DNA from: Candidatus Lustribacter sp.
GTDB taxonomy: Bacteria > Vulcanimicrobiota > Vulcanimicrobiia > Vulcanimicrobiales > Vulcanimicrobiaceae
Assembly: GCA_965277805.1 (NCBI GenBank)
Contig: OZ255842.1
Span: 2,240,001-2,304,000, forward strand
DNA length: 64,000 nt
Direction of reading: 5' to 3'
Every line of letters starts with the position of its first letter. Within the stretch, counting starts at the first letter, position 1. This document shows positions 23,934 to 48,179 of this stretch, piece by piece. Made by a program: the position numbers and the translations under genes. Under the pieces are notes generated by a model. It was not told the DNA's origin. It saw only the letters and a list, made by a program, of their open reading frames with translations, and searched no databases.

Positions 23934-24974
23934 ATGCGGCATAGTCGTTTCACTGCGAGCTCGCTGCGCACGTTGGCAACAGTCGTCTGCGCACTCGCGA
24001 TGCCACTCAATGCCGGCGTTCCGGCGCTCGCCCAAGGAGCGCCGAACGGCGTTGAGACGATCAATGTGGGTACGTTCGGCCAAGGCATCGGGCCTTGGTG
24101 CATCGACGTCGCACGGGACCGCGGATTCTTCGATCAGGCCGGCGTCAAGATCGCGAGCACCATCGTGTTGTACGGCGACGCACCGATCATCAGCGCGCTC
24201 ATCAGCCGCCAAGTCGATATCGTTTTCGCCGGAACGGGTACGCTCGTGCCGCAAGCCAACGGCCAAACCGATCAAATCGCGGTCGTCGGCGGCGGCGAAG
24301 GCTATCCCGTTTCGCTCGTCGCTCCGGATTCGATCACGTCTGCCGCGCAGCTCGTCGGCAAGACGATCGATATGCCGGACAAATCGTCCTCGCTCACGAT
24401 CATCGGCACGAAGCAAGTCGACGCGCTCGTCGGCAAGGGCAAGTGGAACGCGATCTATAGCGGCGGAGCCAATGCCGCGCACTTCGCACTGCTGGCCGGC
24501 GGCCAAGTCCAGGCCGTGCTCGTCAACGATCCGGTCACTTTACCGCCGGATCAGCACTTGCACATCTTGGCGCGCCTCAATGCCGGGCAAGCCTACAACA
24601 ACGGACCGATTCTCACCACTAAAGCGTTCCTTCAATCGAAGCCGCAAGCCGCGATCCGCTTCCTGGCCGGCGTGGCCGCCGGTTGCAACTTCATCCTCAA
24701 TCCAAAAAACCGTACCGCATCGATCGACATTTTATCGAAGGATTCGGAAGTCGATCGCGACGCGTGCGCACAGGCCTACGATTTCTACGTCGCGGGACCG
24801 CAGCGCGGCCGCACGCCGCCGTTCGATGCGCGGCTAGACCGTAAGGCCTACGTCGCCGCCGTGAATTTGCTCAAAGAAGCCGGCACGATTACCGATAAAA
24901 CTTGGGACCCGCTGAGCGTCGTCGATGAATCGTACTTGGATAAAGCGCTGAAGATCGCCGGCAAACTGCACTAA
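23934..24974 (+). CDS. ABC substrate-binding protein (NMT1-like), paralog of 42370-43398
   Basis: GGAGG RBS, signal peptide ..PALAQ, VLYGD, QLVGKTI, GRTPPFDARLD. Confidence 0.85.
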   Translation: MRHSRFTASSLRTLATVVCALAMPLNAGVPALAQGAPNGVETINVGTFGQGIGPWCIDVARDRGFFDQAGVKIASTIVLYGDAPIISALISRQVDIVFAGTGTLVPQANGQTDQIAVVGGGEGYPVSLVAPDSITSAAQLVGKTIDMPDKSSSLTIIGTKQVDALVGKGKWNAIYSGGANAAHFALLAGGQVQAVLVNDPVTLPPDQHLHILARLNAGQAYNNGPILTTKAFLQSKPQAAIRFLAGVAAGCNFILNPKNRTASIDILSKDSEVDRDACAQAYDFYVAGPQRGRTPPFDARLDRKAYVAAVNLLKEAGTITDKTWDPLSVVDESYLDKALKIAGKLH

Positions 24975-24988
24975 GGAGCCCTTTTCCG

Positions 24989-25924
24989 ATGAGCGCCCGC
25001 CGCATCAGCCTGCTCTACCGGGACGTCGATCGGCTCCCGTACCTTCACGCGCTCGCCCGCTGCGCGCGCGCGTACGATCTCGAAATCGAACTCGTGCGCC
25101 ATCGCCAAACCGGTCCCGAGGACTGGAGCGAAAAACTCAAGCGCGGCGAGGTCGATGCGATCTCCGAGAACTACTGGGCCCTGCAGCGCTTTCGCGCGGC
25201 CGGGGAACCATTCGTCACGGTCGCATCCTCGGCGCACGAATGGCTCGAGTGGTTGCTGGTTCGTCCGGGGATCGCATCGCTGGAAGACCTGCGCGGCAAG
25301 CGCATTGCCGTGCGCGACGTCGGGCCGCAACGCTCGTACCCCGGCGTCGTCCTGCGGCGGCTCGGCCTTGCCGGCGATGTCGAACAAGTTCTGGTCACGG
25401 AAAAAGAAAACGGCCGTTGGGGCATGTGGAAAGCCGTCGTCGACGGGCGCTGCGATGCGTTCTTCATGCAGCCCGCTTACGGCGACGCCGCGCTCGCGGC
25501 CGGCTTGCGCCCGATCGCCGTTCCGCCGTTCGCGTTCGAGGGCGGCTACATCATCCCGACGCTCACCGAAGCCTACGTTGCGGCGAATCCCGAAACGGTG
25601 CGCGGCCTGGTGTTCGCCATGTTCGATGCGTGCCGCCGGGCGAAGCACGAATCCGGCTGGCTGCTGGAAGTCACGAAAGCCGACTCGCTCGGCGATCTGG
25701 CCGAGCACTTCGACTTTCAGGACGATGCCGAGGTCGAGCGCTTCGTTGCGCACCAAATCGACGAGATCGCCGAGATTCCGATTCCGGCGCCCGCCGGGTT
25801 GGTCAACGCGCTCGAGATCGCGAAGGCCCAATACGAGATTCCCGACGGCTTCAATCCGCTGGTGATGTGGGATCTCTCGTTCGTCCGCGAAGCCTTGGCT
25901 TCAACCGCCATTAAAGGACGCTGA
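24989..25924 (+). CDS. periplasmic-binding-protein-fold protein without signal peptide, paralog of 36354-37286
   Basis: GEVDAI, IASLEDLRGKRIAV, DGRCDA, YVAANPETVRGLV; no hydrophobic N-terminus. Confidence 0.75.
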   Translation: MSARRISLLYRDVDRLPYLHALARCARAYDLEIELVRHRQTGPEDWSEKLKRGEVDAISENYWALQRFRAAGEPFVTVASSAHEWLEWLLVRPGIASLEDLRGKRIAVRDVGPQRSYPGVVLRRLGLAGDVEQVLVTEKENGRWGMWKAVVDGRCDAFFMQPAYGDAALAAGLRPIAVPPFAFEGGYIIPTLTEAYVAANPETVRGLVFAMFDACRRAKHESGWLLEVTKADSLGDLAEHFDFQDDAEVERFVAHQIDEIAEIPIPAPAGLVNALEIAKAQYEIPDGFNPLVMWDLSFVREALASTAIKGR

Positions 25925-25925
25925 C

Positions 25926-28115
25926 ATGAGTACGGTAGCCGAACCCGCGCGCGTCACGCGCAAGGTCGACCCGGTGACCTTCGAGGTCATCCGGCACCGG
26001 CTCGTGGGAATTACCGAAGAACAAGCGGCGCGCTTGATGACGGTGTCGGGCTCGAAACACGTCACCGAAATGTCCGACTACAATGTGGGCCTCTATCTGC
26101 ACGACGGCTCGGTCGCGGCGATGGGACGCACGATCCTCTACCACTCGTCGTCGATGGCCGCGCTCGTGCGCAGCGTGATCGCCGACTGCAGCGACGAACC
26201 CGGCATCGCACCTGGCGACGTCTTCATCGTCAACGATCCCTGGAAGGGTTCGGTGCACGCGCCCGACATGGCGCTCATTACGCCGATTCACATCGGCGAA
26301 CAGCTGATCTTCTGGTCGGGCGCGATGATGCACATGTCCGACATCGGCGGCATGCATGAGGGCAGCGTGATGTTACCGGCGAGCGAAGCGTATCAGGAAG
26401 GGCTCCTTCTTCCACCGCTCAAGCTCGTTTCCAAAGGCGTGATCCGCCAAGACGTGTGGCGCATGGTGCTCGGCAACTGCCGTCATGCCTCGACGATGGG
26501 GCTCGATCTCAAGGGACTGATGGCAGCCAACAACGCGGCCGTGACCGGGCTGCAGCAACTCGGCGAGCGCTACGGCGTCGAAACGCTGCTAGACGTCATG
26601 GCGTCGTTGATCGAACTCTCCGAAACGCGTCTGCGCGCGCGTTTGCGCGAACTTCCCGAAGCGACGGTCGAAGCGAGCGGGTACCTCGAATTCGATCCGG
26701 GGCTGGGCGACTGTCCGGTCGTGCATCTCGAACTCACCAAGCGCGGCGACGGCCTCACGCTCGATTTTTCCAAATCGTCGCCGCAAGTGCAGAGCTCGGT
26801 GAACTGCACGATCGGCGGCCTCATGGCGGGTGTCTCAGCCGGTCTCTTGCCGACGCTGGCCTACGACATTCCGTGGAACGAAGGCCTCTACCGTCCGCTC
26901 AACGTCATCTGCCCCGAAGGCAGGATCTGCAACGCTCGCCGGCCCGCAGCGCTCAGCGGCAACATCGCCGGTGCAGTGTGGGAAGCCGAAATGGCGACGA
27001 CGGTTGCGCTCTCGCGCCTGGCGGCGTGTTCCGAAGACTACCGGCACGAGGCGCAAGCCTCATCGACGGCGCGTCCGGGTTCGCTCTTCTTCTTCGGCAC
27101 CAATCAGCTCGGCGAACGTTTCGCCGGACGCACCTACGACGTGCTCGGTTCGGGCGGCGGCGCATACGCCGATCACGACGGGGTATCTTCGCACGGCCAC
27201 CACAGCATCGAGCGCCCGCTGATCAGCAACGTCGAATCACTTGAACTGGATCTGCCCATCCTTTATCTCCAGCGCCGCTGGGCGGCCGATAGCGGCGGCG
27301 CCGGAAAGCGGCGCGGCGGCTCGAGCATTCTCTCGATTTACAAACCGCATGGCGCGACGCCGACGTTCCAACGGCTCGGCTTCCGCTGGGAAGTGCCGGA
27401 CGCGATGGGACTGTTCGGCGGCTATCCGGGTTCACAGATGGGCAGTGTGCTGATGCGTCGCACGAACGTCGCCCAAACGATGGCCGGCGGCCACGTGCCG
27501 AACTTTGACGAGGTCGACGGAGAGCGATACGTCCTGCCGCCGCAGCGGCCGATGGCGATCGTGCTCGACACCGACGATGTCGTGCGCGCCGATCCGCCGG
27601 GGCCGGCCGGTTGGGGCGATCCGCTCGAACGCAGCCTCGACGATCTCGACGTCGACGTCCAATTTCACGACGTCTCGCGCGCGGCCGCCGAACGGCTCTA
27701 CGGCTGCGTCTTCGATGCGACCGGAACGATCGATCGCACCGCCACCGCGCAGCGTCGCGCGGAGTTGCGTGATGAACGCAAGGCTTGGGTGAAGCGTAAA
27801 ACGGGCAGTCGCGATGCGCACGGCAAGCTCGCGCGCCGCTTTCACCTAGGGGACGCGCTCGAGATCGCGCGCGACGAAGCGGGCGCCGACTGGACCGTGT
27901 GCACGTGCGGTTTCGTGATCGCGCCGGCGGCAGAGAATTGGCGCGAGTATGCCGCCGCACGCGTCGCCCAACCCGATGACGTCGCCGTCAACATGTTGGT
28001 GCACGCGCCGCTCGAACTGCGTCAGTATGCGTGCCCGGGTTGCGGCCGCCTCCATGCGGCCGATCTTTGCCGAGCCGGCGCCCCCGATCCGTACGACATC
28101 CGGCTGGTGCTCTAG
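25926..28115 (+). CDS. hydantoinase B/oxoprolinase-family subunit fused to acetone-carboxylase-gamma-like Zn domain (#1)
   Basis: DPVTFEVIRH, NDPWKGSVHAPD, HMSDIGG, YQEGL.LPP.K, DSGGAGK.RGG, GWGDPLER; C-terminal CTCG..ENWR..CPGCG. Confidence 0.9.
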   Translation: MSTVAEPARVTRKVDPVTFEVIRHRLVGITEEQAARLMTVSGSKHVTEMSDYNVGLYLHDGSVAAMGRTILYHSSSMAALVRSVIADCSDEPGIAPGDVFIVNDPWKGSVHAPDMALITPIHIGEQLIFWSGAMMHMSDIGGMHEGSVMLPASEAYQEGLLLPPLKLVSKGVIRQDVWRMVLGNCRHASTMGLDLKGLMAANNAAVTGLQQLGERYGVETLLDVMASLIELSETRLRARLRELPEATVEASGYLEFDPGLGDCPVVHLELTKRGDGLTLDFSKSSPQVQSSVNCTIGGLMAGVSAGLLPTLAYDIPWNEGLYRPLNVICPEGRICNARRPAALSGNIAGAVWEAEMATTVALSRLAACSEDYRHEAQASSTARPGSLFFFGTNQLGERFAGRTYDVLGSGGGAYADHDGVSSHGHHSIERPLISNVESLELDLPILYLQRRWAADSGGAGKRRGGSSILSIYKPHGATPTFQRLGFRWEVPDAMGLFGGYPGSQMGSVLMRRTNVAQTMAGGHVPNFDEVDGERYVLPPQRPMAIVLDTDDVVRADPPGPAGWGDPLERSLDDLDVDVQFHDVSRAAAERLYGCVFDATGTIDRTATAQRRAELRDERKAWVKRKTGSRDAHGKLARRFHLGDALEIARDEAGADWTVCTCGFVIAPAAENWREYAAARVAQPDDVAVNMLVHAPLELRQYACPGCGRLHAADLCRAGAPDPYDIRLVL

Positions 28116-28117
28116 GC

Positions 28118-28825
28118 GTGTCCGACATCGCCGATTTGATCGCACGCGCTGTGCGCGTGTGCAACGCCGAGCACGTCATGGACTGGAACGGCCACGTCAG
28201 CGGCCGCGACGAACGCGACCCCAACGTCATGTGGATCAACAACCGGCACTCGAGCCGTTCGACCTTGACGGCAACTGACATCGTGCCGTTCGACATCGCC
28301 GCCGGCAAACGCATCGGCGAGGGCATCGAACCGCCGAGCGAATGGTACATCCACACCTGGATCTACCAGCTGCGGCCCGACGTGTCCGGCATCGTCCACT
28401 CGCATCCCGAGTCGATCGTTACGCTGTCCGCGCTCGGCCGTCTCCTCAAGCCGATCACTCAAACCGGCGTGCAAGCCGGCATCCCGGAAGACGGCGCGCC
28501 CGTGTTCGATAAGGTCGAGACCGTGCACACGCATGCGGACGGCGAAGCGCTCGCGCGCACCCTCGGCAACGCACCGATCGTCGTGCTGCGCCAGCATGGA
28601 GCGGTGACGGTCGGCAGCATGGTCGAGGAAGCCGTTAACCGCATGATCACGAGCGAAGGGAACGCGCGCCAGCTGCTGGCCGCACTGCAGATCGGCGAGC
28701 CAACGTACATTCGCGGCGAAGAATGGCAGCGCATCGGCGGCGGTGGACGCGATTCGAAGCACGGCGTGCTCAAACAGTGGACGTATTTCGAGGAGTCGGC
28801 ACGCAAGAACGGCGCGCTGGATTAG
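28118..28825 (+). CDS. class II aldolase/adducin-family protein
   Basis: GHVSGR, PSEWYIH, IVHSHP, LRQHG. Confidence 0.9.
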   Translation: MSDIADLIARAVRVCNAEHVMDWNGHVSGRDERDPNVMWINNRHSSRSTLTATDIVPFDIAAGKRIGEGIEPPSEWYIHTWIYQLRPDVSGIVHSHPESIVTLSALGRLLKPITQTGVQAGIPEDGAPVFDKVETVHTHADGEALARTLGNAPIVVLRQHGAVTVGSMVEEAVNRMITSEGNARQLLAALQIGEPTYIRGEEWQRIGGGGRDSKHGVLKQWTYFEESARKNGALD

Positions 28826-28829: not shown

Positions 28830-29828
28830 ATGAGCACGCTCGAACTGAGTTGCGCGCTCACCGAAAACACGCACACCCAGGCGATCATCGCCGGTGAGAT
28901 CGCCCCGGAAGCCATCACGTTTCATACGAGCGCGCTGTACCCGACGGAAGTGTTCTGGCGCCAGCTGCATCACGCCGAATTCGACGTCTCCGAAATTTCC
29001 ATCGCCTCGCTCTTGATCGCACTCTCAAAAGGCCTCGACGACTGGGTCACGCTGCCGGTCTTCACCGTCCGCCGCTTTTTCCACACCGGGGTGATGGTGC
29101 GCACCGATCGCGGCATCGACGCTCCCGCCGATCTCGCGGGCAAACGCGTCGGCGTGCCGGAATTTCAGCAGACCTCGGCGGTTTGGAGCCGAGGTATCCT
29201 GCGCGATGAGTTCGGGGTCGATCCCGCCTCGATGGAATGGTTCATGGAGCGCAACCCGGGACAGAGTCACGGCAGCGCCACCGGCTTCACGCCACCGCCG
29301 GGCGTTCGCCTAACCTACATTCCGCGCGAAAAAAGCATCGGGCGAATGCTCGTCGACGGGGAACTCGACGCGCTGATCCATTTCAGCCCGGGCAACAACA
29401 TCATCGACCGCACGACGGTCAATCCGCTCGCCCACCCGCAGGTCCGGCGCCTATTTCCGTCGCCGGAAGCCGAAGCAATCCGCTACTACCGCAAGAGCGG
29501 GATCTATCCGATCAACCACTTCGTCATCGTCCGGCGCTCGCTCACCGAACGATACCCGTGGATCGTGCTCAACATCTACAACGCGTTCTGCGCGGCGCAA
29601 CAACGGCTTGCAACCCAACTCGCTGCGTTGATCGAACCCTACGCCGCCGTCGGTACCGTACCGGCGGAAACGATCGCGGCCATGAAGGCGGCGGACGTCA
29701 TGCCGTACGGCGTCAAGGCCGGCCGCAAGGCGGTCGAGAGCATCGTGCGCTTCTTACACGCCGACGGTCTCATCGATCGTCCGCTCGCGCCGGCTGACAT
29801 TTTCGCCCCGCAAACTCTTGATCTCTAG
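28830..29828 (+). CDS. 4,5-dihydroxyphthalate decarboxylase-like protein
   Basis: FWRQL..EFDVSE.S, LPVF..R.F.H, GVPEFQQTSAVW.RG.L, YYRK.GIYPINH, PYG. Confidence 0.88.
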   Translation: MSTLELSCALTENTHTQAIIAGEIAPEAITFHTSALYPTEVFWRQLHHAEFDVSEISIASLLIALSKGLDDWVTLPVFTVRRFFHTGVMVRTDRGIDAPADLAGKRVGVPEFQQTSAVWSRGILRDEFGVDPASMEWFMERNPGQSHGSATGFTPPPGVRLTYIPREKSIGRMLVDGELDALIHFSPGNNIIDRTTVNPLAHPQVRRLFPSPEAEAIRYYRKSGIYPINHFVIVRRSLTERYPWIVLNIYNAFCAAQQRLATQLAALIEPYAAVGTVPAETIAAMKAADVMPYGVKAGRKAVESIVRFLHADGLIDRPLAPADIFAPQTLDL

Positions 29829-29837: not shown

Positions 29838-30830
29838 ATGCCCGATTCACTCGATCACGCGGCCACCCAACGGCGCAAGTTTCGCGAGTTGCTCGCCCGG
29901 CCGAAGCTCACGGTAATGCCGGGCGGTTTCAGCCCGCTCTATGCGCGCATGGCCGAGGAGATAGGTTTCGAAGCGTTCTTCATCGCCGGTTCGCAGACGG
30001 CCGCGTTTTTGTACGGCGTACCCGATAACGGCATCATCGGTCTGCGCGAGATCGCCGATCACGTTCGCCAAGTCGCAGCGCGCGCGGGAATTCCGATTCT
30101 GGTTGATTGCGATACCGGCTACGGCAATGCGGTCAACGTGACTTACGCCGTCGAGGAGATTATCCGTACCGGGGCGGCTGCGCTGCAAATCGAGGATCAA
30201 GAGGCACCCAAGAAATCGGGCACGGTCGCCGGCCGGCGCTGCATTCCGATGGCCGAGGCCGTCGGCAAGATCGCGGCCGCGACCGCCGCGCGCGACGCGA
30301 TGGAGCCGTCCTTCGTGATCTGCGCGCGCTGCGATGTGCTCGGCGCCGAAGGCGGTACGTTCGAAGATGCCGTGAAGCGTTCGGTCGCCTATGCGAAGGA
30401 AGGCCGAGCCGACCTCATCTGGCTCAACTCCGTTCAGAGCATCGAAGACGTGCATCGCGCGTGTAGCGAAATTCCGGTACCCGTACTGGTGGTATGGGGC
30501 GGACCGCTGCCCGCGCCCACGCCCGCCGAATACGAACGCGCCGGGGCAAAGATAGCGCTCTATCCGGCCATTGCGGCAACGTCCGGCATGAACGCCGCGT
30601 GGCGCGTGCTCAACGATCTGCACGAACGCGGTCCGCAAGCGATTTATGATTACTCGGCCGAAATTCGGGCCTCGAAGTGGGGGCCGGCCGACCAAAACGC
30701 GCTGGTAAAACTTGAACGCGTGCGTGCGATCGAAGATCAGTTCTTGCCCACCGAAGTGAAGCGCGATTACGATAAAACCTGGGGTCATGTCAGCATCCTG
30801 GCACCCGACGCCGGCGGCCCGGCACACTAA
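29838..30830 (+). CDS. isocitrate lyase/PEP mutase-superfamily enzyme
   Basis: GFEA..IAGS, PDNG, DCDTGYGN, QIEDQ..PKKSG, ICARCD. Confidence 0.9.
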   Translation: MPDSLDHAATQRRKFRELLARPKLTVMPGGFSPLYARMAEEIGFEAFFIAGSQTAAFLYGVPDNGIIGLREIADHVRQVAARAGIPILVDCDTGYGNAVNVTYAVEEIIRTGAAALQIEDQEAPKKSGTVAGRRCIPMAEAVGKIAAATAARDAMEPSFVICARCDVLGAEGGTFEDAVKRSVAYAKEGRADLIWLNSVQSIEDVHRACSEIPVPVLVVWGGPLPAPTPAEYERAGAKIALYPAIAATSGMNAAWRVLNDLHERGPQAIYDYSAEIRASKWGPADQNALVKLERVRAIEDQFLPTEVKRDYDKTWGHVSILAPDAGGPAH

Positions 30831-30845
30831 GTGAGGAAGAGCCCG

Positions 30846-31805
30846 ATGCAATCTTCATTCCACCTGCACCGCGGAGCGTTCCTGAGCGGGCTCGCTGCCG
30901 CTGCACTTCCGTCCGTGCTCGGAGCGCAAGAGCTCACCAAGCTGCGCATCGCCGGTACTCCGGATCAGGATATCGTCGGCAGCTTCTGGGCGCAACAGAG
31001 CGGCATTTTCCAGCGCTACGGTATTGACGCCGACGTCACCACGATCAGCAGCGGCGCGGCGATTTCGGCGGCCGTGATCGGCGGCTCGCTCGACATCGGC
31101 AAATCGAGCCTGCTGGCGTTGATTCAAGCGCACGCCAAGGGCATTCCGCTCGTCATCATCGCGGCCTCGCTGCTGTACAATGCCGCGAAACCGATCACGG
31201 CCCTCGTCGTCGCGAAGGATTCACCCATTCACACCGGCCGCGATCTCAACGGCGCAACCGTGGCCGTGACCGCGCTCGGAGACTTCTACTCGATGATGAA
31301 CGCCGCGTGGATCGATACGCACGACGGCGATTCCAAATCCGTCCACTTCGTCGAGCTGCCGTCGCGCGCGGCCGCCGATGGAATCACCGCCGGCCGCGTC
31401 GCCGCAACCACGCTTACCGCACCGCTGCTCGATCAAGAACTGCAGAGCGGCAACTTCCGCGTGCTCGGCTACCCGTTCAGCGCCGCGGCGAACGTGTTTC
31501 TGCTGACCGCCTACTTCTGCACGGCCGACTTCGCTGCTAGAAATCGCGCCGTTTTACCGCGCTTCCGGCGCGCGCTGGCCGAATCGGCCACCTATGCCAA
31601 TGCGCACCGCTCCGCCATGATTCCGGTCATCTCGAAGTATAGCGGCGTCGATCCGGCAACGCTGGCGGCGATGCCGGACGTGCCGTTGGCGCAACCCAAT
31701 CAGCTGCAGGCTCCGCTGATCCAGCCGCTGATCGACGTCGCCGTAAAATACAAGTCGATTCCCCAGGGCTTCAGCGCCAAGGAGCTGCTTGACCCATCGA
31801 TCTAG
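30846..31805 (+). CDS. SsuA/NMT1-type ABC substrate-binding protein
   Basis: HRGAFL signal, GAAISAAVIGGSLDIG, DLNGATVAV, WIDTHDGD. Confidence 0.87.
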   Translation: MQSSFHLHRGAFLSGLAAAALPSVLGAQELTKLRIAGTPDQDIVGSFWAQQSGIFQRYGIDADVTTISSGAAISAAVIGGSLDIGKSSLLALIQAHAKGIPLVIIAASLLYNAAKPITALVVAKDSPIHTGRDLNGATVAVTALGDFYSMMNAAWIDTHDGDSKSVHFVELPSRAAADGITAGRVAATTLTAPLLDQELQSGNFRVLGYPFSAAANVFLLTAYFCTADFAARNRAVLPRFRRALAESATYANAHRSAMIPVISKYSGVDPATLAAMPDVPLAQPNQLQAPLIQPLIDVAVKYKSIPQGFSAKELLDPSI

Positions 31806-39375: not shown

Positions 39376-40159
39376 AGTCGTGATCCGGATGGTTGACGGC
39401 GCCGACACGCCAGTAACCACGGGTGACGATGCGCTCCTTATCGAGGCCCGAGCGTTCGACGATCGTTCCGCGCAAACGCCGCATCGCGATCGCTTCACAG
39501 CCCACGTAGACGCGGCCGGCGCCCGCCGGCCACGCGAACTTCTCGAGCTCGGCGAACAGTGCCGAGCCCGGCCCGCTGTCATCGCGCACGACCCAACGGA
39601 TGTCGTTGCCGGGTGCGCCCGGCAGCGGCCGCTCCTCATCGGCAGTGAGCATCTCGATGAACGCGGTGACCTTGACGCTCGCCGGTAATACCTCAAGCAG
39701 CGTCTCGAGCGCCGGCAGCGCCGTCTCGTCGACCGCGAACACATACCAGGCGGCGGTTTCGTCGACTTCATAGCCGCGCGCGGGCCCGAGCAACACGAGT
39801 TCCTGACCCCGTTGCGCCTGCATCGCCCAGGTCGAACCCGGACCGTCTCCGTGCAGTACGAAATCGACCTCGAGGCGTTGCGTTTGCGGATCGAAACGGC
39901 GCGGCGTATACGTGCGCGTGGTCGTCCGCCGCGGACCGTCCGGATCGTACGGCGGCACATTAGTTTGCCCCGGCTCCGGGAAGATCAGCTTCAAATGCGC
40001 GGCGGGACCGGACCACACGAAGCCCGCCAATTCTTGGCCTTCAAACGTAATGCGCCGAACCCGCGGGCTCAGGCGCTGCACGCCCGCAACGCTGATCCGG
40101 CGCGGCGTGCGCGGTTTGCGCTTGCGGGGCGAAGGCGCGGTTGATGTCGTTGTTTCCAA
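39362..40159 (-). CDS. siderophore-interacting protein (ViuB/FNR-like FAD-binding reductase)
   Basis: HLKLIFP, RTYTPR, DFVLHG.GP.S.WA, DETALPA, GYWR. Confidence 0.9.
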   Translation of the reverse strand: METTTSTAPSPRKRKPRTPRRISVAGVQRLSPRVRRITFEGQELAGFVWSGPAAHLKLIFPEPGQTNVPPYDPDGPRRTTTRTYTPRRFDPQTQRLEVDFVLHGDGPGSTWAMQAQRGQELVLLGPARGYEVDETAAWYVFAVDETALPALETLLEVLPASVKVTAFIEMLTADEERPLPGAPGNDIRWVVRDDSGPGSALFAELEKFAWPAGAGRVYVGCEAIAMRRLRGTIVERSGLDKERIVTRGYWRVGAVNHPDHDYAND

Positions 40160-40168: not shown

Positions 40169-42355
40169 CTAAGCCAAGACGAGCCGGATGTCGTGTAAAT
40201 CCGGACTTTCCTTGCGGGACACGTCGACCGCATGCAGACGTCCGCAGGCGGGGCACGCGTAGGCACGTCCCTCCATCGCCTCGTTGATCTTCAAGCCCAT
40301 GCCGAGCTGATCGGCCGGAATGATCTTCCGTCCTGCGAACTCGCGCCAATTGTCCCGTGCGTGTGCGAGCGTATGCCCGCAGTTGCAGCGCGTCCAATAG
40401 TCGCCGGCCGCATCGCGGTCGACCTGCATGCGATCCCCGAGCGGCGCCACGCGTACGAGGTCGCCGGCCGGCTTCGCATCGAGCGTCTTCTTCCGCGGCC
40501 AAGCCTTGCGCTCGGCATGGATCTTCGCGCGCGATTCATCCGAACGCGCTGTATCGAGCGTTCCGTCGGCGCTCAGCACGCAGCCGTACAGCCGTTCCGC
40601 AGCCGCCGCTGAAATCGCGCCCGCGAGCAGGTCACGCTGCACTTCGGCGACAGGCCGGTCGAGCGGATCGCCCCAACCCGCACCGGTCGGCGGATTCGCG
40701 CGGACGACGTCGGTGGCATCCAGCAGCATATTCATCGAGCGATCTGCGGGATCAATCCACTCGCCCTTCAGATCGCCGAAATCCGGAACCTGACCCGATT
40801 TGAGCCGCTCGAGCACGTCGGTGTGCCGAATGAGATCGTGCCCGGTTTCCGAGCCCGGATAGCCGCCGAAGAGACCCAGCGAGTCGGGCGTCTTCCACTC
40901 CTGATTGATGTACTGAAACGTCGCTTGGGCTTTGTGCGGTGCGTAGACGCCAAGCAAGCTCAGGCCGCCGCGATGGCTGCCGGCGCCGCCGCTGTCCGTC
41001 GCCCAGCCGCGCCGCAGATACAAGATCGGGTAGTCGAGTTCGAGCACCTCGGCGTTGCTGATCAGCGTGCGCTCCATGCCGTGGTGACCTTGCGTCGAGA
41101 CACCGTCGTGATCGGCATACGCACCGCCGCCCGACGCGATGACGTCGTACGTGCGCCCGCGGTAGCGTTCGCCGTGCTGGTTCATTCCGAAGAAGGCCAG
41201 CGTGCGCGGGCGTCCGCACGGCGCGGCCTGCGCCTCGCCCAGTAACGTGTCCGAGCACGCGACGATCCGCGATACGGCGATGAGCGTCGCGACTTCTGAT
41301 TCCCACACGGCGCCCGCGATGTTGCCGCTGACGGCGGCCGGACGCTTCGCGTTGCAAATACGGCCTTCGGGGCAAATGATCTCGAGCGGACGGAACAAGC
41401 CTTCGTTCCATGGGATGCCGAAGGCGAGCGTCGGCAAGAGCGCCGCCGCAACGCCGGCCTTGAGACCGCCCAGCGTACAGTTGATCGCGCTGCCGACTTG
41501 GGCCGTCGACCCGGAGAAATCCAAGTGCAAACGGTCGCCCTCTTTGCGCAGCGCGACGTGAACCTCGGGAACCTCCCCGCGCTGGGGATCGAATTCCATA
41601 TATCCGGAACCGGTCACGAGACCGTCGGGTAGTTCCATGATCCGGCGCCGAAAGCGCGCTTCGGATGACGAGATCAACCGCGCCATCGCGATCTGCAGCA
41701 GATCGGCGCCGTAACGTCGGACCAGGTTCTGAAGCCCGTCGCGCGCGGCGAGGTTGGAGGCGATCAAGCCGCGCAAATCGAGGCTCATCGTCGCCGGGTG
41801 GCGGCTGTTGTTGGTGATGAAATGCAGCAGATCGTTGCGAACGCGGCCGCCTTCCACGATCTTGATGGGCGGGATCTGCATGCCTTCCTGATAGCACTCG
41901 ACGGCCGCTTGCACGAGGCTGCCCTCCGCCATTCCGCCGATGTCCGACATGTGCATGATCGCGCCGGCCCACAACACCAGCCGGCCGTCGATGTGCAAGG
42001 GCGCGAGCATGGCGACGTCGGGTGCGTGCAGCGAGCCCTTCCAAGGGTCGTTGACGATGAACATGTCGCCTTCGTTGATCCCGGGATCGACCGCGCAGTC
42101 TGCGATCACCGCGCGCACCATCTCAGCCATACAGGCGGAGTGGTGCAGCGAGGTGTGCCCCATAGCCGCGACCGATCCGTCGGCGAGATACAAACCGACG
42201 TTGAAGTCGGACATTTCGGTCACTTGCTTCGAGCCCGAGATCGTCATCAAACGCGCGGCTTGTTCGCTCGTGATGCCGTGCAGCCGATGCCGGATGACCT
42301 CGAAGGCAACCGGGTCGATGACCTCGTCTTCGCGGACCTTCTCAAATGTCGTCAC
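40169..42355 (-). CDS. hydantoinase B/oxoprolinase subunit + acetone-carboxylase-gamma-like domain (#3)
   Basis: NDPWKGSLHAPD, HMSDIGG, CNCGH..DNWR..CPACG. Confidence 0.9.
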   Translation of the reverse strand: MTTFEKVREDEVIDPVAFEVIRHRLHGITSEQAARLMTISGSKQVTEMSDFNVGLYLADGSVAAMGHTSLHHSACMAEMVRAVIADCAVDPGINEGDMFIVNDPWKGSLHAPDVAMLAPLHIDGRLVLWAGAIMHMSDIGGMAEGSLVQAAVECYQEGMQIPPIKIVEGGRVRNDLLHFITNNSRHPATMSLDLRGLIASNLAARDGLQNLVRRYGADLLQIAMARLISSSEARFRRRIMELPDGLVTGSGYMEFDPQRGEVPEVHVALRKEGDRLHLDFSGSTAQVGSAINCTLGGLKAGVAAALLPTLAFGIPWNEGLFRPLEIICPEGRICNAKRPAAVSGNIAGAVWESEVATLIAVSRIVACSDTLLGEAQAAPCGRPRTLAFFGMNQHGERYRGRTYDVIASGGGAYADHDGVSTQGHHGMERTLISNAEVLELDYPILYLRRGWATDSGGAGSHRGGLSLLGVYAPHKAQATFQYINQEWKTPDSLGLFGGYPGSETGHDLIRHTDVLERLKSGQVPDFGDLKGEWIDPADRSMNMLLDATDVVRANPPTGAGWGDPLDRPVAEVQRDLLAGAISAAAAERLYGCVLSADGTLDTARSDESRAKIHAERKAWPRKKTLDAKPAGDLVRVAPLGDRMQVDRDAAGDYWTRCNCGHTLAHARDNWREFAGRKIIPADQLGMGLKINEAMEGRAYACPACGRLHAVDVSRKESPDLHDIRLVLA

Positions 42356-42369: not shown

Positions 42370-43398
42370 CTAGTGCGAGAACAGCGACGGGGTCTTGATC
42401 GCTTTGTCCAGATATGAGAAATCGATCACGCTGTGATAGTCCCAGGCTGGATTGGAGATGATTTGCTCGTCCTTGAGCACTTGAATGGCATTGGCAAACG
42501 CTTTCGGATCGAGCCTGGCATCGACCGGTGGCGTATTGCCGCGGAACGGTCCGGCGGCATAATACTCATACGCATCGGTGGCTGCGGCGACGCTGAGCGG
42601 ACCGCCCTTCGCCAGCAGGTCGATCGCTTGCGCACGATTCTTTGGATCGAGGATGTAGTCACAACCCTTGGCCAGCGCGCCCATGAAGCGCACGGCGGTA
42701 TCAGGATTCGCCTTGAGCCAATTGCGGGTCGACATCACCAAGCCGTTGTTATACAGCTTCTGGCTCGCGCCGAAATGGGTCAGGGTGTGCATGCCGTTGA
42801 AATCGCCGCGATCGACGGGGTCGTTGATGTACGCGGCTGCAGCTTGGCCGCTCACGACCGCCGCGAGCCGGCCGGTGCTGGCACCGCCGATGTAGAGCGG
42901 CTTCCATTTGTCCTTGCCGACGTACCCGTTGATGAGCGCCGTACCGATCGCCTCGTTCGACGTGTTGTGCGCGGGCAGTGCGATCGTCTTCCCCACCAGC
43001 TGAGCGGGCGAGGTTATCGACGGCGGCGAGATTAGCGAAACCGGCGAACCTTCGCTGCTGCCCAACACGACGAGCTGGTCGCTCTGACCGTTCGCCGCCG
43101 GAATGACCGAGGCCGCGCCGGCCGTGACGATGTCGGCTTGCCCGCTGGTCAGTGCGCTGACGATCGCCGGATCGCCGTAAAGCACGACCGAGTTCCCGAT
43201 GCGGATCCCGGCCTTCGCGAAATAGTTCCCTTGCTGCGCGCCGTAGATGCACCACGAGCCCAGTGTCGAGCCGTAGGTCGCGATGTTGACGGTCTTCAAA
43301 TCGGGAGCTGCGTTCGTCTGCGCGACCGTCGCGGAATCCATGGAACCGAGTAACGTCAACGACACGGCGCCGCACAGCAACATCCGGGCAGTAATCAT
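42370..43398 (-). CDS. ABC substrate-binding protein, paralog of 23934-24974
   Basis: Signal peptide, VLYGD, QLVGKTI, GNTPPVDARLD. Confidence 0.85.
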   Translation of the reverse strand: MITARMLLCGAVSLTLLGSMDSATVAQTNAAPDLKTVNIATYGSTLGSWCIYGAQQGNYFAKAGIRIGNSVVLYGDPAIVSALTSGQADIVTAGAASVIPAANGQSDQLVVLGSSEGSPVSLISPPSITSPAQLVGKTIALPAHNTSNEAIGTALINGYVGKDKWKPLYIGGASTGRLAAVVSGQAAAAYINDPVDRGDFNGMHTLTHFGASQKLYNNGLVMSTRNWLKANPDTAVRFMGALAKGCDYILDPKNRAQAIDLLAKGGPLSVAAATDAYEYYAAGPFRGNTPPVDARLDPKAFANAIQVLKDEQIISNPAWDYHSVIDFSYLDKAIKTPSLFSH

Positions 43399-43451: not shown

Positions 43452-43486
43452 TATTCCTCCGAATTACCGTGACTGGAGAACGCGCG

Positions 43487-43891
43487 ATGTCAACTACCAG
43501 CGCAAAAACGCTGATTCCCGGACCCGAGGGCAAAACGATCCGCGGCGGCAACTGCTACGGCGTCAAGGCCGGCGGCTTTCTCTTTCTGTCGGCCGTGCGC
43601 GGCACGTTGCCGAACGACGGCGGCGTGCCGTCCGATCTCGAGGAACAAGCGCGTCAGCTCTTCCGCAACATCCAAGACACGCTCAAGCAATCCGGTGCGA
43701 CGATGGATCAGGTCGTCAAGATGGCTGTCTACATGATCGATCTTGAAAACGACCGTCCGGTCTTCAACAAGGCCTGGAAAGAGTTTTTCGGCGATCAGCC
43801 GCCGGCGCGCTTCGCGGTCCAGGTGACGGGCATCGGCAATCCCGGCGACGGCAGCCGTTTCCTCTGTGACGTTACGGCGCTGGCTCCGTAG
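43487..43891 (+). CDS. RidA-family protein
   Basis: GFLFLS, EQARQ..RN, FNKAW..FF...PPARFAVQV; GGAG RBS. Confidence 0.87.
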   Translation: MSTTSAKTLIPGPEGKTIRGGNCYGVKAGGFLFLSAVRGTLPNDGGVPSDLEEQARQLFRNIQDTLKQSGATMDQVVKMAVYMIDLENDRPVFNKAWKEFFGDQPPARFAVQVTGIGNPGDGSRFLCDVTALAP

Positions 43892-43903: not shown

Positions 43904-44998
43904 CTAGAGCGTGAGCTGTGGCGTGACGCCGTGCTTCTTCATCTCCTCGAGCCAGAGCGCGTGGATACGCGGATCCTGATCCGCGTATTCGATTTGCCCA
44001 CCACCGTCGCGCACGCTGGTGGCGAGGGCGCCCTGCCCCTCGGCGTCACCTTGCGAGGAGAGCTGCGAATCAGTTAGCGGGTAGCGCACGTTGCTGACGC
44101 CCGCTGCAATGTAGCGCGAGGGGTAGTTGCTCGTTACGAAGTGCTGGTGGAACTGGCCCTCGATGGGCGGAAAGACGACCCCGGGCTTCCAATCGACGCG
44201 CGTGAATTCGGTTTCGCCCGCGAACCACAGCAGCGAATACCCCGTACCCGTCACTGTGAAGACGTGCCGGCCGGCGCCGTGCCGGTGCGCTTTCTTGTAC
44301 GTTCCCGCTTGGATTTCCGAACAGTGAACGTGCATGTTTCCGTCGGCCAGAATGAAAACGATATTGGACGATCCCGTGCCGCGCTCGTTCCAAGCGTGCA
44401 ACTCGATCGACGCCAGATCAGGGATGAAATTCGTTTCCCAGAAATTCCAACCGGGGCGGCCGGTGAAGAGTTCGCCGCCGCCGTCGTAGTCTTTGTCCTC
44501 GCCGATGCGTGCGCGGAAAAAATGCGGGTTGTCGAAGATGAAGGCATCGTCGTGAAAGAGCTTCATCATCAGCGGCAGCGACGTCGTCGAGGCGATGACG
44601 GCCCGGTTCCTGCCGTCGCCGTTGTGCAGCCGGTACGTCGCGTTCAGCGGAATCGCAAACATGCTGTTGTGTTGCCATTCGAAGCTGTGTTTGCGCCCAT
44701 TGGGAAACTCCACCTGAGCGCTGCCGCGGCCTGCCACGACGTACATCACCTCTTCGTAGAGATGGCGCTGCGGTTCGGTCGACGCCCCGGGCGGCAAATC
44801 GATCAGGAAAAGATTGCAGAAATCGCCGCGCCCGCGCAAATGCACCGCCGCCGCGTTGGCACCCAAACGCGGCCAGTGTTTGGTTTCCACGTCCAGCAAC
44901 TCGCACGAGATGCCTTCGTGAACGATGAGACCCTCGCGCGCCACCCACTCATTGTACGGGTTGATCCCGACCCGCACGCTCTTGCCGTCCGTTGCCAT
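43904..44998 (-). CDS. bicupin protein (gentisate 1,2-dioxygenase-like fold)
   Basis: QRHLYEEV.YV..GRG and KKAHRH..G.G.S..FHQHF cupin motifs. Confidence 0.8.
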   Translation of the reverse strand: MATDGKSVRVGINPYNEWVAREGLIVHEGISCELLDVETKHWPRLGANAAAVHLRGRGDFCNLFLIDLPPGASTEPQRHLYEEVMYVVAGRGSAQVEFPNGRKHSFEWQHNSMFAIPLNATYRLHNGDGRNRAVIASTTSLPLMMKLFHDDAFIFDNPHFFRARIGEDKDYDGGGELFTGRPGWNFWETNFIPDLASIELHAWNERGTGSSNIVFILADGNMHVHCSEIQAGTYKKAHRHGAGRHVFTVTGTGYSLLWFAGETEFTRVDWKPGVVFPPIEGQFHQHFVTSNYPSRYIAAGVSNVRYPLTDSQLSSQGDAEGQGALATSVRDGGGQIEYADQDPRIHALWLEEMKKHGVTPQLTL

Positions 44999-47103
44999 CA
45001 GCGTTCGCGGATGATGACGTTGCCGCCGTCATCTCCGAGCGCCGTCTGATTCGGACCGATGACCACGGTGGTGCCGAAGAACTCGAGAATCGCCGGACCC
45101 TCGATCGGCACGCGGGCGGGCACAGCTTCACCGCGATAGATGGCCGTTGCGACCATCTCTTTCTCGAACATCACGTCGCGCGATCCGAGCAGCGCTTTCT
45201 GCAGCGTCGCGCCGGCCTCGCGATTCGAACCGGACGGCGCATGCAGCGATGGGATGCGGCCTTCGACGCGGAACGTGTTGACCTCGATGCCGGCCTCGGC
45301 GAGGCTCGTTCCTTGACCGTAGATCCGTTCGTAGCGCGCATAGAATTCCGGCACCAGGGCATCGAGGTCGCTGCGTTCGAGTATGCCGCCCGGAACGGGC
45401 ACGGCAAGCTCGTGTACTTGGCGCCGGAAACGGAAGTACAGCGTGCGCTTGAGCACGAGGTGCGGGCTGTCGTGCATCGCTTCGCGGCAGCGCTGCTCGA
45501 GCGCTTCGAACGTGGCGTTGATGCGCGCCAGGTCGAGGTGCTCGGCGGCGTTGCGCGAGCCCGGCGGCGTGTGCTGCGGATCGCTGCGCTGGAAACTTCG
45601 AAAACGATCCGACGACACGGCTCCGAAACCCGAATGCACCGTTGCCGTGTGCGGCACGACGACGGTCCGGATGCCGGCCTCGCGCGCTATGGCATAGCCG
45701 TGCGTCGGTCCCGCTCCGCCATAGGCGAACATCACGAAATCGCGCGGGTCGTAGCCCTGTTGAATCGTCACGGCGCGCACGAGGTCGGCCATCTGGTTTT
45801 CGGCCACGGCGCGAATACCTGACGCCGCTTCCAGCAACGAGAGGCCCAGCGGTTCGGCGATGTACTCGCGGATCGCTTGCTCGGCGAGCTCGCGATAGAG
45901 TGGAATGCGCCCGCCGAGAAAATATTTCGGATCGATGATGCCGAGCACGACGTCGGCGTCGGTCACGGTCGGCCGACTTCCGCCCGCGCCGTAGCACGCG
46001 GGTCCCGGCACGGCGCCGGCGCTTTCCGGTCCCACAATCAGCACGCCGTCGTCGTCGACCGAAGCGATGCTCCCGCCGCCTGCACCGATCGCGGTGATGC
46101 GAATGCGCGGCGAGGCGATGTGGTAATTGCCGGTGATGCTTTGCGTCGCGACGAGCGGTTCGCCGTCGACGATGAGCGCGGCATCGAAACTCGTGCCGCC
46201 CATGTCGCCGGTGATGACGTTGGGAAAGCCGAGCTTGCGGGCCAGCGCCGCCGATGCCAGCACGCCGCCGGCCGGACCGGAAACCATCAGCTCGACCGCC
46301 CGCGCTCCGGCCTCCGCCGCTTCGACCACGCCGCCGGCCGAGTCCATGACCGTGAAATCGCCATGAAAACCGTTCGCACGCAGCCGGTTTTCGAGCAACT
46401 CTACGTAGCGCCGAATGATCGGGCCTAGGTATGAGTTGACCACGGTCGTCACCGTGCGCTCGTACTCGCCGATCACCGGTGCGATTTCGCTCGAGAGCGT
46501 GATGAAGACGTCGGGGCACTCTTCGCGGATGATGCGCGCGGCCTGCTGCTCGTGATCGGGCCGCACGAACGCCCAGAGGAAGCAAATCGAGACCGCGCCG
46601 ATGCCTTCGTCGCGAATGCGCTTGGCCGCGGCACGAATCTGATCGGCCTGCAGCGGTACGATCTCATCACCTTCCCAATCGACGCGTTCATCGATCTCGA
46701 TGATGTCTTCGCGCGGCACGATCGGCAGCGGATTGCGGCGCTCGCTGTAGTGGTCGGAGCGATTACCGATTCCGGTCCACGAACCCATCGCCCGCTGGAC
46801 GAAGATCGTTTCCCCAAAACCGCGCGTGGTAAGCAACAGCGTACGCTCGCCCTTGCGTTCGATGTAGGCGTTCGTCGCCGCGGTCGTCCCATGGGCGAAG
46901 TAGTCGACGCTGCCCGTAAATTCTTCGAGCGTCATTCCGAACTCGGCCGCCGCCAATTTGAAGCCTTCGATGACCGCGAGGCTGCGGTCTTGCGGCGTGG
47001 TCGGCACCTTGAAGAGGCGCAGCGCGCCGGCACCATCGAGCACCACCATATCGGTGAACGTGCCGCCGATATCGGTCCCGACGGCAAAACGAGAATCGGT
47101 CAT
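44998..47103 (-). CDS. hydantoinase A/oxoprolinase-family subunit (#2)
   Basis: Same motifs as #1, with long identical stretches. Confidence 0.94.
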   Translation of the reverse strand: MTDSRFAVGTDIGGTFTDMVVLDGAGALRLFKVPTTPQDRSLAVIEGFKLAAAEFGMTLEEFTGSVDYFAHGTTAATNAYIERKGERTLLLTTRGFGETIFVQRAMGSWTGIGNRSDHYSERRNPLPIVPREDIIEIDERVDWEGDEIVPLQADQIRAAAKRIRDEGIGAVSICFLWAFVRPDHEQQAARIIREECPDVFITLSSEIAPVIGEYERTVTTVVNSYLGPIIRRYVELLENRLRANGFHGDFTVMDSAGGVVEAAEAGARAVELMVSGPAGGVLASAALARKLGFPNVITGDMGGTSFDAALIVDGEPLVATQSITGNYHIASPRIRITAIGAGGGSIASVDDDGVLIVGPESAGAVPGPACYGAGGSRPTVTDADVVLGIIDPKYFLGGRIPLYRELAEQAIREYIAEPLGLSLLEAASGIRAVAENQMADLVRAVTIQQGYDPRDFVMFAYGGAGPTHGYAIAREAGIRTVVVPHTATVHSGFGAVSSDRFRSFQRSDPQHTPPGSRNAAEHLDLARINATFEALEQRCREAMHDSPHLVLKRTLYFRFRRQVHELAVPVPGGILERSDLDALVPEFYARYERIYGQGTSLAEAGIEVNTFRVEGRIPSLHAPSGSNREAGATLQKALLGSRDVMFEKEMVATAIYRGEAVPARVPIEGPAILEFFGTTVVIGPNQTALGDDGGNVIIRER

Positions 47104-48179
47104 CGCACCCCTGCCAAGGCCGGCGGGAACACCGCAAACGCCTTGGTCGAATTGAAGATATAGGATTCGCAGAAGTCGGTGAAGCTTGGCACCTGACCGA
47201 TTTCAGTCATCGCCCCGGCTAAGCAAATCCAGTTGAGCATCTCGTGCTGGCCCGAGCCTTCCAAATCGCTGATGCCGAGTTTGCCCCAATTCTCGATACG
47301 ATTCGTCTTGAGTTCGTCGTAGTGGATGCGATCCGAGGCGATGTCGGGATAGAGGCGCTGATGCTTCTTGGTCAACGAGCCGTGCGACCAGCTCGAGCTC
47401 GCCACGAGCGCGACCCGGTAGGGGCTTTCTTTGAAGAACCGTGCGGTAATTTGCCCCACTTCGAAACAGCGGCGCGGGCTCGGCGCAGGCGGGCTCAGTT
47501 CGCCCGTGCCTTCGCCGACGAGCGAAGCCGACGTCGTCATCAGCTCGTTGCCGTAGCAGTTGACGTGAAACGGCACCAGTGGAAACGGAAAGCCTTGCTG
47601 GTCGTAGTCGAGATACAAAACCGAATTGGCAAACGAATGCGGCAAGCCGCGCTCGTAGCGCATCTGCATCGAGTAGGCAATGTCGACGCCTTGGTCGAGC
47701 AGATGGCGGGCCAGTTGCGTGCCGGCTTTCTTATGCGAGCGCACCGGGATCGTGTAGTCGGCCGGCAGCCCCCAGGCATTGGTGGCCGTGCGAAATGCGC
47801 CGGTTTCCAAATCGGCCAGCGGCTGACACTTCATGTCGTCGACAAGAAAGATGCAGAACGCAGGGATGCAGTCTTTCTTAAAGTTTTCGTACTGGTCGTC
47901 GCCCCACATGACGATGAAATCCGGCGCGAACGCGTCGAGTTCGGCACGCAAGCGGCGGTAGCCGGCGATCAGTTTCTCGTGGTGCTTGCGCGCGGCCGTC
48001 TGCCCGTCGTCTTGACCCCACTCCGTGCGCATCTCCTCGGGCCAACGGCTGCGGTCGTCAAAGAGGTCGCGCGGAATGCGCCCCCGCTCGACCTGCGTTT
48101 GAAGATGACGCGGCCAAAACTCCGCCGGTACGGCCGGGCCGGGATAGTGACTCAGGCCGAGCCCCAGAATTTCGCCCAT
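47100..48179 (-). CDS. LigB-like (class III extradiol dioxygenase fold) protein
   Basis: GLGLSHYP, PDFIVMWGDDQYENF, PHSF, VASSSWSH, GQHEMLNW. Confidence 0.8.
   Translation of the reverse strand: MGEILGLGLSHYPGPAVPAEFWPRHLQTQVERGRIPRDLFDDRSRWPEEMRTEWGQDDGQTAARKHHEKLIAGYRRLRAELDAFAPDFIVMWGDDQYENFKKDCIPAFCIFLVDDMKCQPLADLETGAFRTATNAWGLPADYTIPVRSHKKAGTQLARHLLDQGVDIAYSMQMRYERGLPHSFANSVLYLDYDQQGFPFPLVPFHVNCYGNELMTTSASLVGEGTGELSPPAPSPRRCFEVGQITARFFKESPYRVALVASSSWSHGSLTKKHQRLYPDIASDRIHYDELKTNRIENWGKLGISDLEGSGQHEMLNWICLAGAMTEIGQVPSFTDFCESYIFNSTKAFAVFPPALAGVR

Follow-up and report, generated by a model that had tools for sequence, protein, structure and literature searches.

HyuA-type proteins and HyuB-gamma fusions in an aromatic-degradation gene island of Candidatus Lustribacter

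Which enzymes are encoded by the multiple HyuA- and HyuB-type genes in an aromatic-degradation gene island of Candidatus Lustribacter sp., and what chemistry would they carry out? The island was analyzed in a window of 64,000 nucleotides (nt) of contig OZ255842.1; all coordinates below are positions in this window. A Pfam domain search bore out the three HyuB-type (B1, B2, B3) and two HyuA-type (A1, A2) genes reported by a first-pass annotation of the sequence. By their domain content these proteins belong to the superfamily that unites hydantoinases and oxoprolinases with ketone carboxylases, and all three B proteins are fused to a small Cys4 zinc-ribbon module of the carboxylase gamma type (hence Bγ). 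Our answer is tentative and held with somewhat less than even confidence: A and Bγ are likely to assemble into enzymes in which ATP would phosphorylate the enol of a carbonyl compound, and the metal site of Bγ is predicted, most likely, to carboxylate it within a LigB-type ring-cleavage pathway.

The Hydantoinase_B domain scores 385, 382 and 400 bits in B1, B2 and B3, and Acetone_carb_G (PF08882) scores 25.1, 23.3 and 26.8 bits (Pfam cut-offs 26.8 and 21 bits, respectively). The proteins are 66% (B1/B2), 58% (B1/B3) and 59% (B2/B3) identical. Residues D51, H111, D114 and H136 of B1 align with the metal tetrad D41/H99/D102/H124 of the caprolactamase subunit CapB, a tetrad found essential by mutagenesis (PMC8453981). 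The D-H-D-H ligands and the four ribbon cysteines are the same in all 8 aligned Bγ proteins and in all 35 of a larger set, and all three window copies retain both the tetrad and the CxC...CPxC motif. The last 90 residues of B1 match the gamma subunit of acetone carboxylase Acx (5m45_C, E=7.5e-4). The top Foldseek matches of the B1 AlphaFold model (pLDDT 83.8) are the beta subunit of acetophenone carboxylase Apc (5l9w_A, 9.5e-38) and the Acx alpha subunit (5m45_A, 6.8e-37), followed by N-methylhydantoinase and CapB at about 1e-36 to 1e-35. The gamma part of the model was matched separately to Acx gamma (5m45_C, 2.1e-5) and Apc gamma (5l9w_C, 1.1e-2).

According to PMC5214803 and PMC13677872, a small gamma subunit is present in Acx and Apc and not in hydantoinases or oxoprolinases. 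The Bγ fusion carries a feature so far linked to carboxylases. In Apc the gamma subunit is embraced by the C-terminal arm of beta (PMC5214803), which makes a beta-gamma fusion structurally plausible. The partner proteins A1 and A2 are 81% identical and contain Hydant_A_N, Hydantoinase_A and Hydant_A_C, all over the Pfam cut-offs (Hydantoinase_A 303 and 293 bits, respectively). Both keep the motifs DIGGTFTD, DMGGT and GAVPGP (patterns DxGGTxxD, DxGGT and GxxPGP). Binding of A to Bγ is inferred by analogy with CapAB, Acx and Apc.

The Bγ proteins are not unique to the source genome; the similarity searches place them in a large, widespread and unnamed clade of Actinomycetota, Chloroflexota and Vulcanimicrobiota. 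The database search (E<=1e-30, 8000 scored candidates) returned 1622 matches. The best 120 of these are at least 47% identical, are almost all 650–760 amino acids (aa) long, bear generic names only, and originate from Candidatus Lustribacter, metagenome-assembled genomes (MAGs) of Chloroflexota and many genera of Actinomycetota. In a quick maximum-likelihood tree of 51 HyuB proteins with SH-aLRT support, in which long-branch joins were flagged among the outgroup rows, the 34 Bγ rows form one clade (branch length 3.62, support 100). Within it, 19 rows make up an Actinomycetota group and 14 a group from metagenomes and Vulcanimicrobiota. B1 is sister to B2 (99), and a clade of eight rows (100) unites this pair with the B3 group, so the Bγ triplication arose within the source lineage. 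The genome has 15 HyuB genes; since the 12 others are only 27–30% identical to B1, and 11 other HyuA only 34–42% identical to A2, the window set constitutes a class of its own. Most of these 12 HyuB genes adjoin a HyuA gene, and there is one fused A-B gene of 1295 aa.

A related MAG (G205) contains three Bγ (84, 59 and 59% identical to B1) and two close A proteins (88 and 80%); 13 further HyuA genes were seen in the same MAG. Searches at E<=1e-60 found no Bγ in genome G145, which is of the same genus, or in three further genomes of the family; this indicates that the island is accessory. The extra copies could be redundant or decaying duplicates without a separate function, and the abundance of HyuB paralogs in the genome would fit this explanation, which we nevertheless consider highly improbable. 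Degeneration had been named at first pass as a possible objection; every motif tested is retained in the three Bγ and the two A, their frames are open at full length, and no copy shows signs of decay. Identity among the copies has fallen to 57–66%, yet each has an ortholog of 84–88% identity in other genomes or contigs, and the 2A:3Bγ ratio is kept in G205.

The first-pass annotation took 2A:3Bγ for the make-up of the system. This was revised: A adjoins Bγ as a single plain pair in 19 of 19 Actinomycetota loci, and the ratio in the window is, by the phylogeny, a lineage-specific duplication that elaborates the A-Bγ kind. A LigB(A) dioxygenase gene lies directly downstream of A-Bγ in 18 of these loci. 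The class II aldolase-like gene is present in 15, and the other four end short of that position. The Actinomycetota cassette also includes a CUT2-type ABC transporter, an IclR regulator and two alpha/beta hydrolases. The gene order in a metagenome cassette (L039) is IclR, A, LigB, alpha/beta hydrolase, RidA, Y, Bγ and DLH, where Y is a cytoplasmic protein with a substrate-binding-protein (SBP) fold that is also encoded next to B1 and B2. The comparison of neighborhoods, suggested at first pass as a check, recovered the A-Bγ and LigB cassette in both Actinomycetota loci and metagenome contigs, and the link of the Bγ clade to LigB-type ring cleavage holds across phyla. An MBL-fold gene upstream of A in one locus (L006) was rejected as a conserved part because it occurs in 1 of the 19 Actinomycetota loci.

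For placement against characterized members we used bit scores to PDB chains and NCBIfam models. B1 scores 178 bits with CapB, 162 with N-methylhydantoinase, 148 with Apc beta and 98 with Acx alpha; A2 scores 393 bits with CapA, 390 with the Apc chain 5l9w_B, 375 with N-methylhydantoinase and 307 with Acx beta. The equivalog cut-offs of NCBIfam are missed widely. A1 and A2 reach 543 and 546 bits with the CapA model (NF050156/NF050157 pair, cut-off 1000), 366 and 393 bits with ApcC (cut-off 1500), and 215 and 223 bits with ApcA (cut-off 1250). The three Bγ reach 212, 207 and 206 bits with the CapB model (cut-off 1000), and 161, 168 and 171 bits with ApcD (cut-off 1500). Judged from these scores and the domain content, the A+Bγ architecture fits no characterized member (CapAB, Hyu/Opl, Acx, Apc). 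To this extent the initial claim that the set fits no known system was upheld, but the architecture belongs to a widespread clade and is not special to the island. A literature search, with subscription journals outside its coverage, found no description of the fusion or of a similar cluster.

Several observations weigh against carboxylation as the activity of A·Bγ. The hydrolases score slightly higher, both for PDB chains and in NCBIfam (206–212 bits with the CapB model versus 161–171 with ApcD). The first metal ligand is Asp51 in B1, as in CapB and Apc beta, whereas Acx alpha has Glu; this position is invariantly Asp across the Bγ clade, so the Acx-type Glu is not found there. In XaAc alpha the first, gating ligand is Glu89 (PMC8453981). 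The Apc-alpha fingerprint R/KERiDsxG was searched for in A1 and A2 and not found, and a second, divergent alpha'-type subunit was not seen. Because A1 and A2 are so similar and both are closer to ApcC than to ApcA, they do not constitute an alpha/alpha' pair. The epsilon subunit of Apc and of the Rhodococcus acetone carboxylase Acr, of about 30–34 kDa, is needed for activity. No epsilon homolog was recognized here: at E<=1e-3 the SBP-fold proteins X and Y gave no match to an Apc-type model of NCBIfam, the presence of an ApcE model in the collection being unconfirmed. Epsilon subunits are reported in PMC13677872 as too divergent for pairwise detection. The gamma subunit is remote from the Apc and Acx active sites and is thought to be structural (PMC5214803); its presence correlates with carboxylase function and is no proof of it. 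Finally, RidA, present in the island and a frequent neighbor of Y, lends some support to a nitrogen-containing, lactam-type substrate.

These points lead to an alternative that we hold to be almost as probable as carboxylation. A·Bγ would use ATP to hydrolyze lactams or cyclic imides, much like caprolactamase, N-methylhydantoinase or oxoprolinase. An N-heterocyclic or amino-aromatic intermediate would have its stable ring amide opened, and the resulting enamine or imine would be dealt with by RidA. The best sequence matches (CapB and N-methylhydantoinase for B1, CapA for A2), the lead of the Cap over the Apc models, and the simple A+B make-up without alpha' or a recognized epsilon agree with such an activity. 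So does RidA: among 64 metagenome loci containing Y, of which 17 are well flanked (at least 2.2 kb on each side), a RidA gene on the same strand within 150 nt of Y occurs in 7 of the 17 and is the commonest direct neighbor of Y. A precedent is given by the caprolactamase-like SktIJ, induced and encoded in a skatole cluster with a Rieske oxygenase, although its function is only proposed there (bioRxiv 10.1101/2024.12.29.630347). On the other hand, the gamma zinc ribbon is missing from every known hydrolase of the family (PMC5214803, PMC13677872). The structure search ranks Apc beta and Acx alpha first, though marginally, and the Actinomycetota cassette contains neither RidA nor, among its annotated genes, an obvious amidase or deaminase. 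We infer that the chemistry is carboxylation rather than hydrolysis.

In the proposed carboxylation, the A subunit would use ATP to phosphorylate the enol form of a carbonyl intermediate and possibly also bicarbonate, and the D-H-D-H metal site of Bγ would then carboxylate the activated species. The two A subunits would serve all three Bγ, which presumably differ in substrate. The combinatorial pairing of A and B suggested at first pass is a conjecture, as is an N-heterocycle substrate, although the conserved RidA neighbor lends the idea of nitrogen some support. The neighboring genes point to several kinds of compounds: the decarboxylase-like genes to hydroxylated aromatic di-acids, RidA to amino-aromatics or N-heterocycles, and the LigXa-type Rieske oxygenase genes of the island to methoxylated, lignin-derived compounds. 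We speculate, as a long shot, that A·Bγ represents a third, hitherto undescribed architecture of ATP-dependent carboxylases, acting on phenolic or aryl-ketone intermediates ahead of LigB-type cleavage in aerobic soil bacteria. Interchangeable Bγ on shared A would then widen the substrate range, and Y would hand over substrate or bicarbonate in the manner of Apc epsilon.

By spacing, the A and B genes are distributed over three gene units: one contains a B without A, one an A without B, and one two B and one A (Table 1). The plus-strand unit (23922–31805) includes X1, Y1, B1, the class II aldolase-like gene, Z, the isocitrate-lyase-family lyase and an SBP gene. One minus-strand unit (43398–34153) is formed by X2, B3, SIP, A1, Y2 and B2, with gaps or overlaps of at most 14 nt except for the 32-nt overlap of A1 and Y2; the other (48179–43904) includes the LigB-like gene, A2 and the bicupin gene. 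The RidA gene lies between the two minus-strand units on the opposite strand, and the IclR regulator gene is upstream. Scans for sigma-70-type promoters and terminators found sites no more often than in shuffled sequence, and the transcription units are therefore drawn from gene spacing. Promoter-like sites, at this chance frequency, precede X1 (23883–23912) and the LigB-like gene (48246–48217).

Table 1. Genes of the island, with positions in the 64,000-nt window
Gene product	Position	Strand	Remarks
X1, NMT1/THI5-type substrate-binding protein with signal-peptide-like N-terminus	23922..24974	+	Pfam NMT1 32.8 bits; first gene of unit
Y1, cytoplasmic SBP-fold protein of a rare family	24989..25924	+	Pfam NMT1 24.8 bits; without signal peptide
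B1, HyuB-type metal subunit fused to gamma-like Cys4 zinc ribbon	25926..28115	+	Pfam
Class II aldolase-family protein resembling 3,4-dihydroxyphthalate decarboxylase	28118..28825	+	Pfam Aldolase_II 116 bits
Z, signal-less SBP-fold homolog of 4,5-dihydroxyphthalate decarboxylase	28830..29828	+	listed open reading frame (ORF) from 28743
PEP-mutase/isocitrate-lyase superfamily lyase, similar to methylisocitrate lyase	29838..30830	+	Pfam, NCBIfam
NMT1-type substrate-binding protein with signal-like N-terminus	30831..31805	+	last gene of plus-strand unit
B2, HyuB-gamma fusion	34153..36357	-	listed ORF 34153-36393; start overlaps Y2 stop as ATGA
Y2, cytoplasmic SBP-fold paralog of Y1	36354..37295	-	between A1 and B2
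A1, HyuA-type ATP-binding subunit	37264..39375	-	Pfam; listed ORF 37264-39960
SIP/FAD_binding_9 flavin reductase-like protein	39362..40159	-	domain match
B3, HyuB-gamma fusion	40169..42355	-	Pfam
X2, NMT1-type substrate-binding protein with signal peptide	42370..43398	-	first gene of X2-B3-SIP-A1-Y2-B2 unit
RidA/YjgF-family protein	43469..43891	+	Pfam Ribonuc_L-PSP 65 bits
Bicupin	43904..44998	-	weak cupin matches
A2, HyuA-type ATP-binding subunit	44998..47103	-	Pfam; unit without any B gene
Divergent LigB-superfamily protein	47100..48179	-	Pfam LigB 37 bits, partial; first gene of LigB-like/A2/bicupin unit
IclR-family regulator	48255..49052	-	upstream of island; kept beside cassette in relatives

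Some starts differ from those of the listed ORFs. The A1 start is most likely at about 39375 (MPTTDGRRFLVGTDIGGTFTD), giving a protein of 703 aa, not 898. B2 most likely starts with the ATG at 36357, in an overlap with the stop codon of the gene upstream. The class II aldolase-like ORF is listed from 28031, and a candidate GTG is present at 28118, directly after the B1 stop. At window positions 37312–38482, a contig from two runs (here X1 and X2 denote runs, not proteins) of one sample links a diverged A1 copy, rich in substitutions, to the region downstream of 38461. Either a second strain or an assembly that collapsed the paralogs A1 and A2 would account for this copy.

The absence of an A gene from the B1 unit, stated at first pass, was confirmed. 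The B1 orthologs (84% identity) on metagenome contigs L025 and L026 also lie in X-Y-B-lyase units without A, the lyase gene directly following the ortholog, and the orphan status of B1 is thus conserved. B1 would use A1 or A2 from another transcription unit. Two other metagenome loci (L033, L056) contain two Bγ, a LigB-like gene, RidA and Y within 12.9 kb and no A in this stretch, and the excess of B over A may recur beyond the source genome. The SIP gene was considered as a core part and rejected, as it is absent between B3 and A1 in the relative L001, where RidA is found in the same place.

The SBP-fold proteins interleaved with the A and B genes are of three kinds, X, Y and Z. The interleaved genes had been listed at first pass as SIP, LigB-like, bicupin and one signal-less SBP set. 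The first three are present, whereas the SBP proteins are a mixture of secreted X, decarboxylase-like Z and cytoplasmic Y. Signal peptides were judged by hydrophobicity and an Ala-x-Ala-type end, and not by a dedicated predictor; by these signs only Y1, Y2 and Z lack one. X1 and X2 are 45% identical and have signal-peptide-like N-termini, that of X1 being hydrophobic and ending in ALAQG, and are probably extracytoplasmic uptake receptors. The window contains 14 PF09084 (NMT1/THI5-type) genes between 9205 and 59777, starting at 9205, 15334, 18114, 23922, 24989, 28743, 30831, 31802, 36354, 42370, 49175, 52006, 56036 and 58455. No SsuBC-type permease or ATPase was found among the 64 window ORFs scanned, which contain only an Opp-type ABC set (35–4890). 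The 14 genes look like an expanded family of 'orphan' binding proteins.

Z matches 4,5-dihydroxyphthalate decarboxylase (9jp7_A) with E=1.1e-49 and 172.5 bits over residues 1–330 of 332. This full-length homology to the 9JP7 enzyme shows that, in such islands, a protein of SBP fold without a signal peptide can be an enzyme. In contrast to Z, Y has no detectable sequence relation to 9JP7, and a relationship between Z and Y beyond the shared fold was rejected (hhalign probability 5.7). For the class II aldolase-like protein, PhtC (3,4-dihydroxyphthalate decarboxylase) is the best-but-one NCBIfam model (83.5 bits, cut-off 200). This protein and Z are probably aromatic-acid decarboxylases. Two unlike types of putative cofactor-independent decarboxylases, of class II aldolase fold and of SBP fold, adjoin behind B1.

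Y1 and Y2 are 64% identical and match PF09084 with 24.8 and 23.5 bits (cut-off 20.5). The Y model (pLDDT 94.5) has a confident SBP fold; its Foldseek matches include 3qsl (3.3e-15) and Thi5 (4esx, 2.9e-14). By VIA-align it is nearest to transport-type binders, with Z-scores of 19–22 for 3qsl (22.1), SsuA (3uif, 21.4), ThiY, NrtA and the cytoplasmic CmpBCD regulatory domain; the enzymes Thi5, DszB and 9jp7 give 18.7, 16.8 and 14.7. The Y family is rare, with 46 clusters at E<=1e-5 (8000 scored candidates among 5.8 billion proteins). Y was not found at E<=1e-10 among 200 other genomes sampled from the phylum, a Y profile found nothing below E=0.09 among PDB sequences, and an ESM Atlas search returned generic NMT1 clusters only. 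A third, partial Y-like frame (G000:C1:2364096-2364620) lies about 60 kb outside the window and encodes 175 aa, 38% identical to residues 173–303 of Y1.

The place of Y next to Bγ raises the possibility that it is a stoichiometric third subunit, a functional analog of Apc epsilon that delivers substrate or bicarbonate to Bγ. The Y1 gene ends 1 nt ahead of the B1 start, and Y2 and B2 overlap by their stop and start codons. A same-strand HyuB lies within 150 nt of Y in 10 of all 64 Y loci and in 6 of the 17 well-flanked ones; in four of the HyuB-adjoining loci (L034, L052, L054, L057) this is a distant, gamma-less HyuB of 27–30% identity. The nearest structures, which are ligand binders, would also agree with such a role. 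Among the well-flanked loci, a HyuA or HyuB gene is found in 10 of 17, a Rieske oxygenase gene in 10 and LigB in 6; 7 of the 17 contain no Hyu gene, with Y beside Rieske oxygenase genes. In addition, the gene ahead of B3 is that of the secreted X2 and not a Y gene. Y is absent from all four Actinomycetota genomes with A-Bγ that were searched (best 30–41 bits, versus 499 and 444 in the related MAG), and so it appears to be tied to the pathway and not an obligate subunit. We consider a subunit role unlikely, and propose that Y1 and Y2 serve the pathway in the cytoplasm, either by binding ligands or as enzymes.

Of the remaining genes in and around the island, the LigB-like protein matches MhpB-type NCBIfam models with up to 48 bits, under the cut-off; neither it nor the bicupin has a significant solved relative by sequence. 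The bicupin has seven paralogs in the genome (51–73% identity) and the LigB-like protein two (54% and 43%). Four Rieske oxygenase genes are located at 10602–12062(-), 22665–23894(-), 32640–34007(+) and 61546–62820(-). Three of their products contain a LigXa-type C-terminal domain, and no ferredoxin or reductase gene was seen adjacent to them; the SIP-type flavoprotein might act as a reductase for these oxygenases. A single-chain LigB+LigA dioxygenase gene (20085–21332), of an architecture known from gallate dioxygenases, lies beside a gene for a PfkB-family kinase (19101–20066). The product of the gene at 14623–15321(-) belongs to the arylmalonate decarboxylase/maleate isomerase family (Pfam Amdase, 86 bits). 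Enzymes of this type have a late role in pyridine-ring catabolism.

The hydantoinase/ketone-carboxylase family has few characterized members, each with a new chemistry, such as lactam opening and biotin-free carboxylation of acetone and acetophenone. The analysis defines a large clade of beta-gamma fusions with a conserved partner A and a conserved ring-cleavage context in two phyla. The one-A, one-Bγ cassette of cultured Actinomycetota offers a tractable route to the substrate, and the 2A:3Bγ island is a natural test of the sharing of A-type subunits by B-type subunits. Y, a rare protein, has the fold of transporter receptors but a cytoplasmic location.

Compared with known systems, the set resembles caprolactamase CapAB of Pseudomonas jessenii (6YRA) in having an A-type ATP-binding and a B-type metal subunit, in its highest sequence scores (178 bits for B1, 393 for A2), and in the conserved D-H-D-H tetrad and ATP motifs. 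Unlike Bγ, CapB (581 aa) lacks the gamma zinc ribbon, and the CapAB genes are not in an aromatic ring-cleavage cassette. N-methylhydantoinase and 5-oxoprolinase (7HK5, 9H03) share the superfamily (162 bits for B1 and 375 for A2 with N-methylhydantoinase); there A and B are fused and gamma is absent, whereas in the window B is fused to gamma and A is separate. Apc (5L9W) consists of alpha, alpha', beta, gamma and epsilon, as does the Rhodococcus enzyme Acr. Its beta subunit ranks first in the structure search with the B1 model, and Apc shares the Cys4 gamma module, but in the window gamma is fused to beta, and neither an alpha/alpha' pair nor the Apc-alpha fingerprint was found in A1 and A2. 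Acx (alpha, beta, gamma; 5M45, 5SVB) is the weakest sequence match among the solved B-type subunits (98 bits), and its gamma is a separate, longer protein. Nevertheless, its gamma matches that of B1 by both sequence and fold, and Acx, which combines single A- and B-type subunits with a gamma ribbon, has the same modules as A+Bγ.

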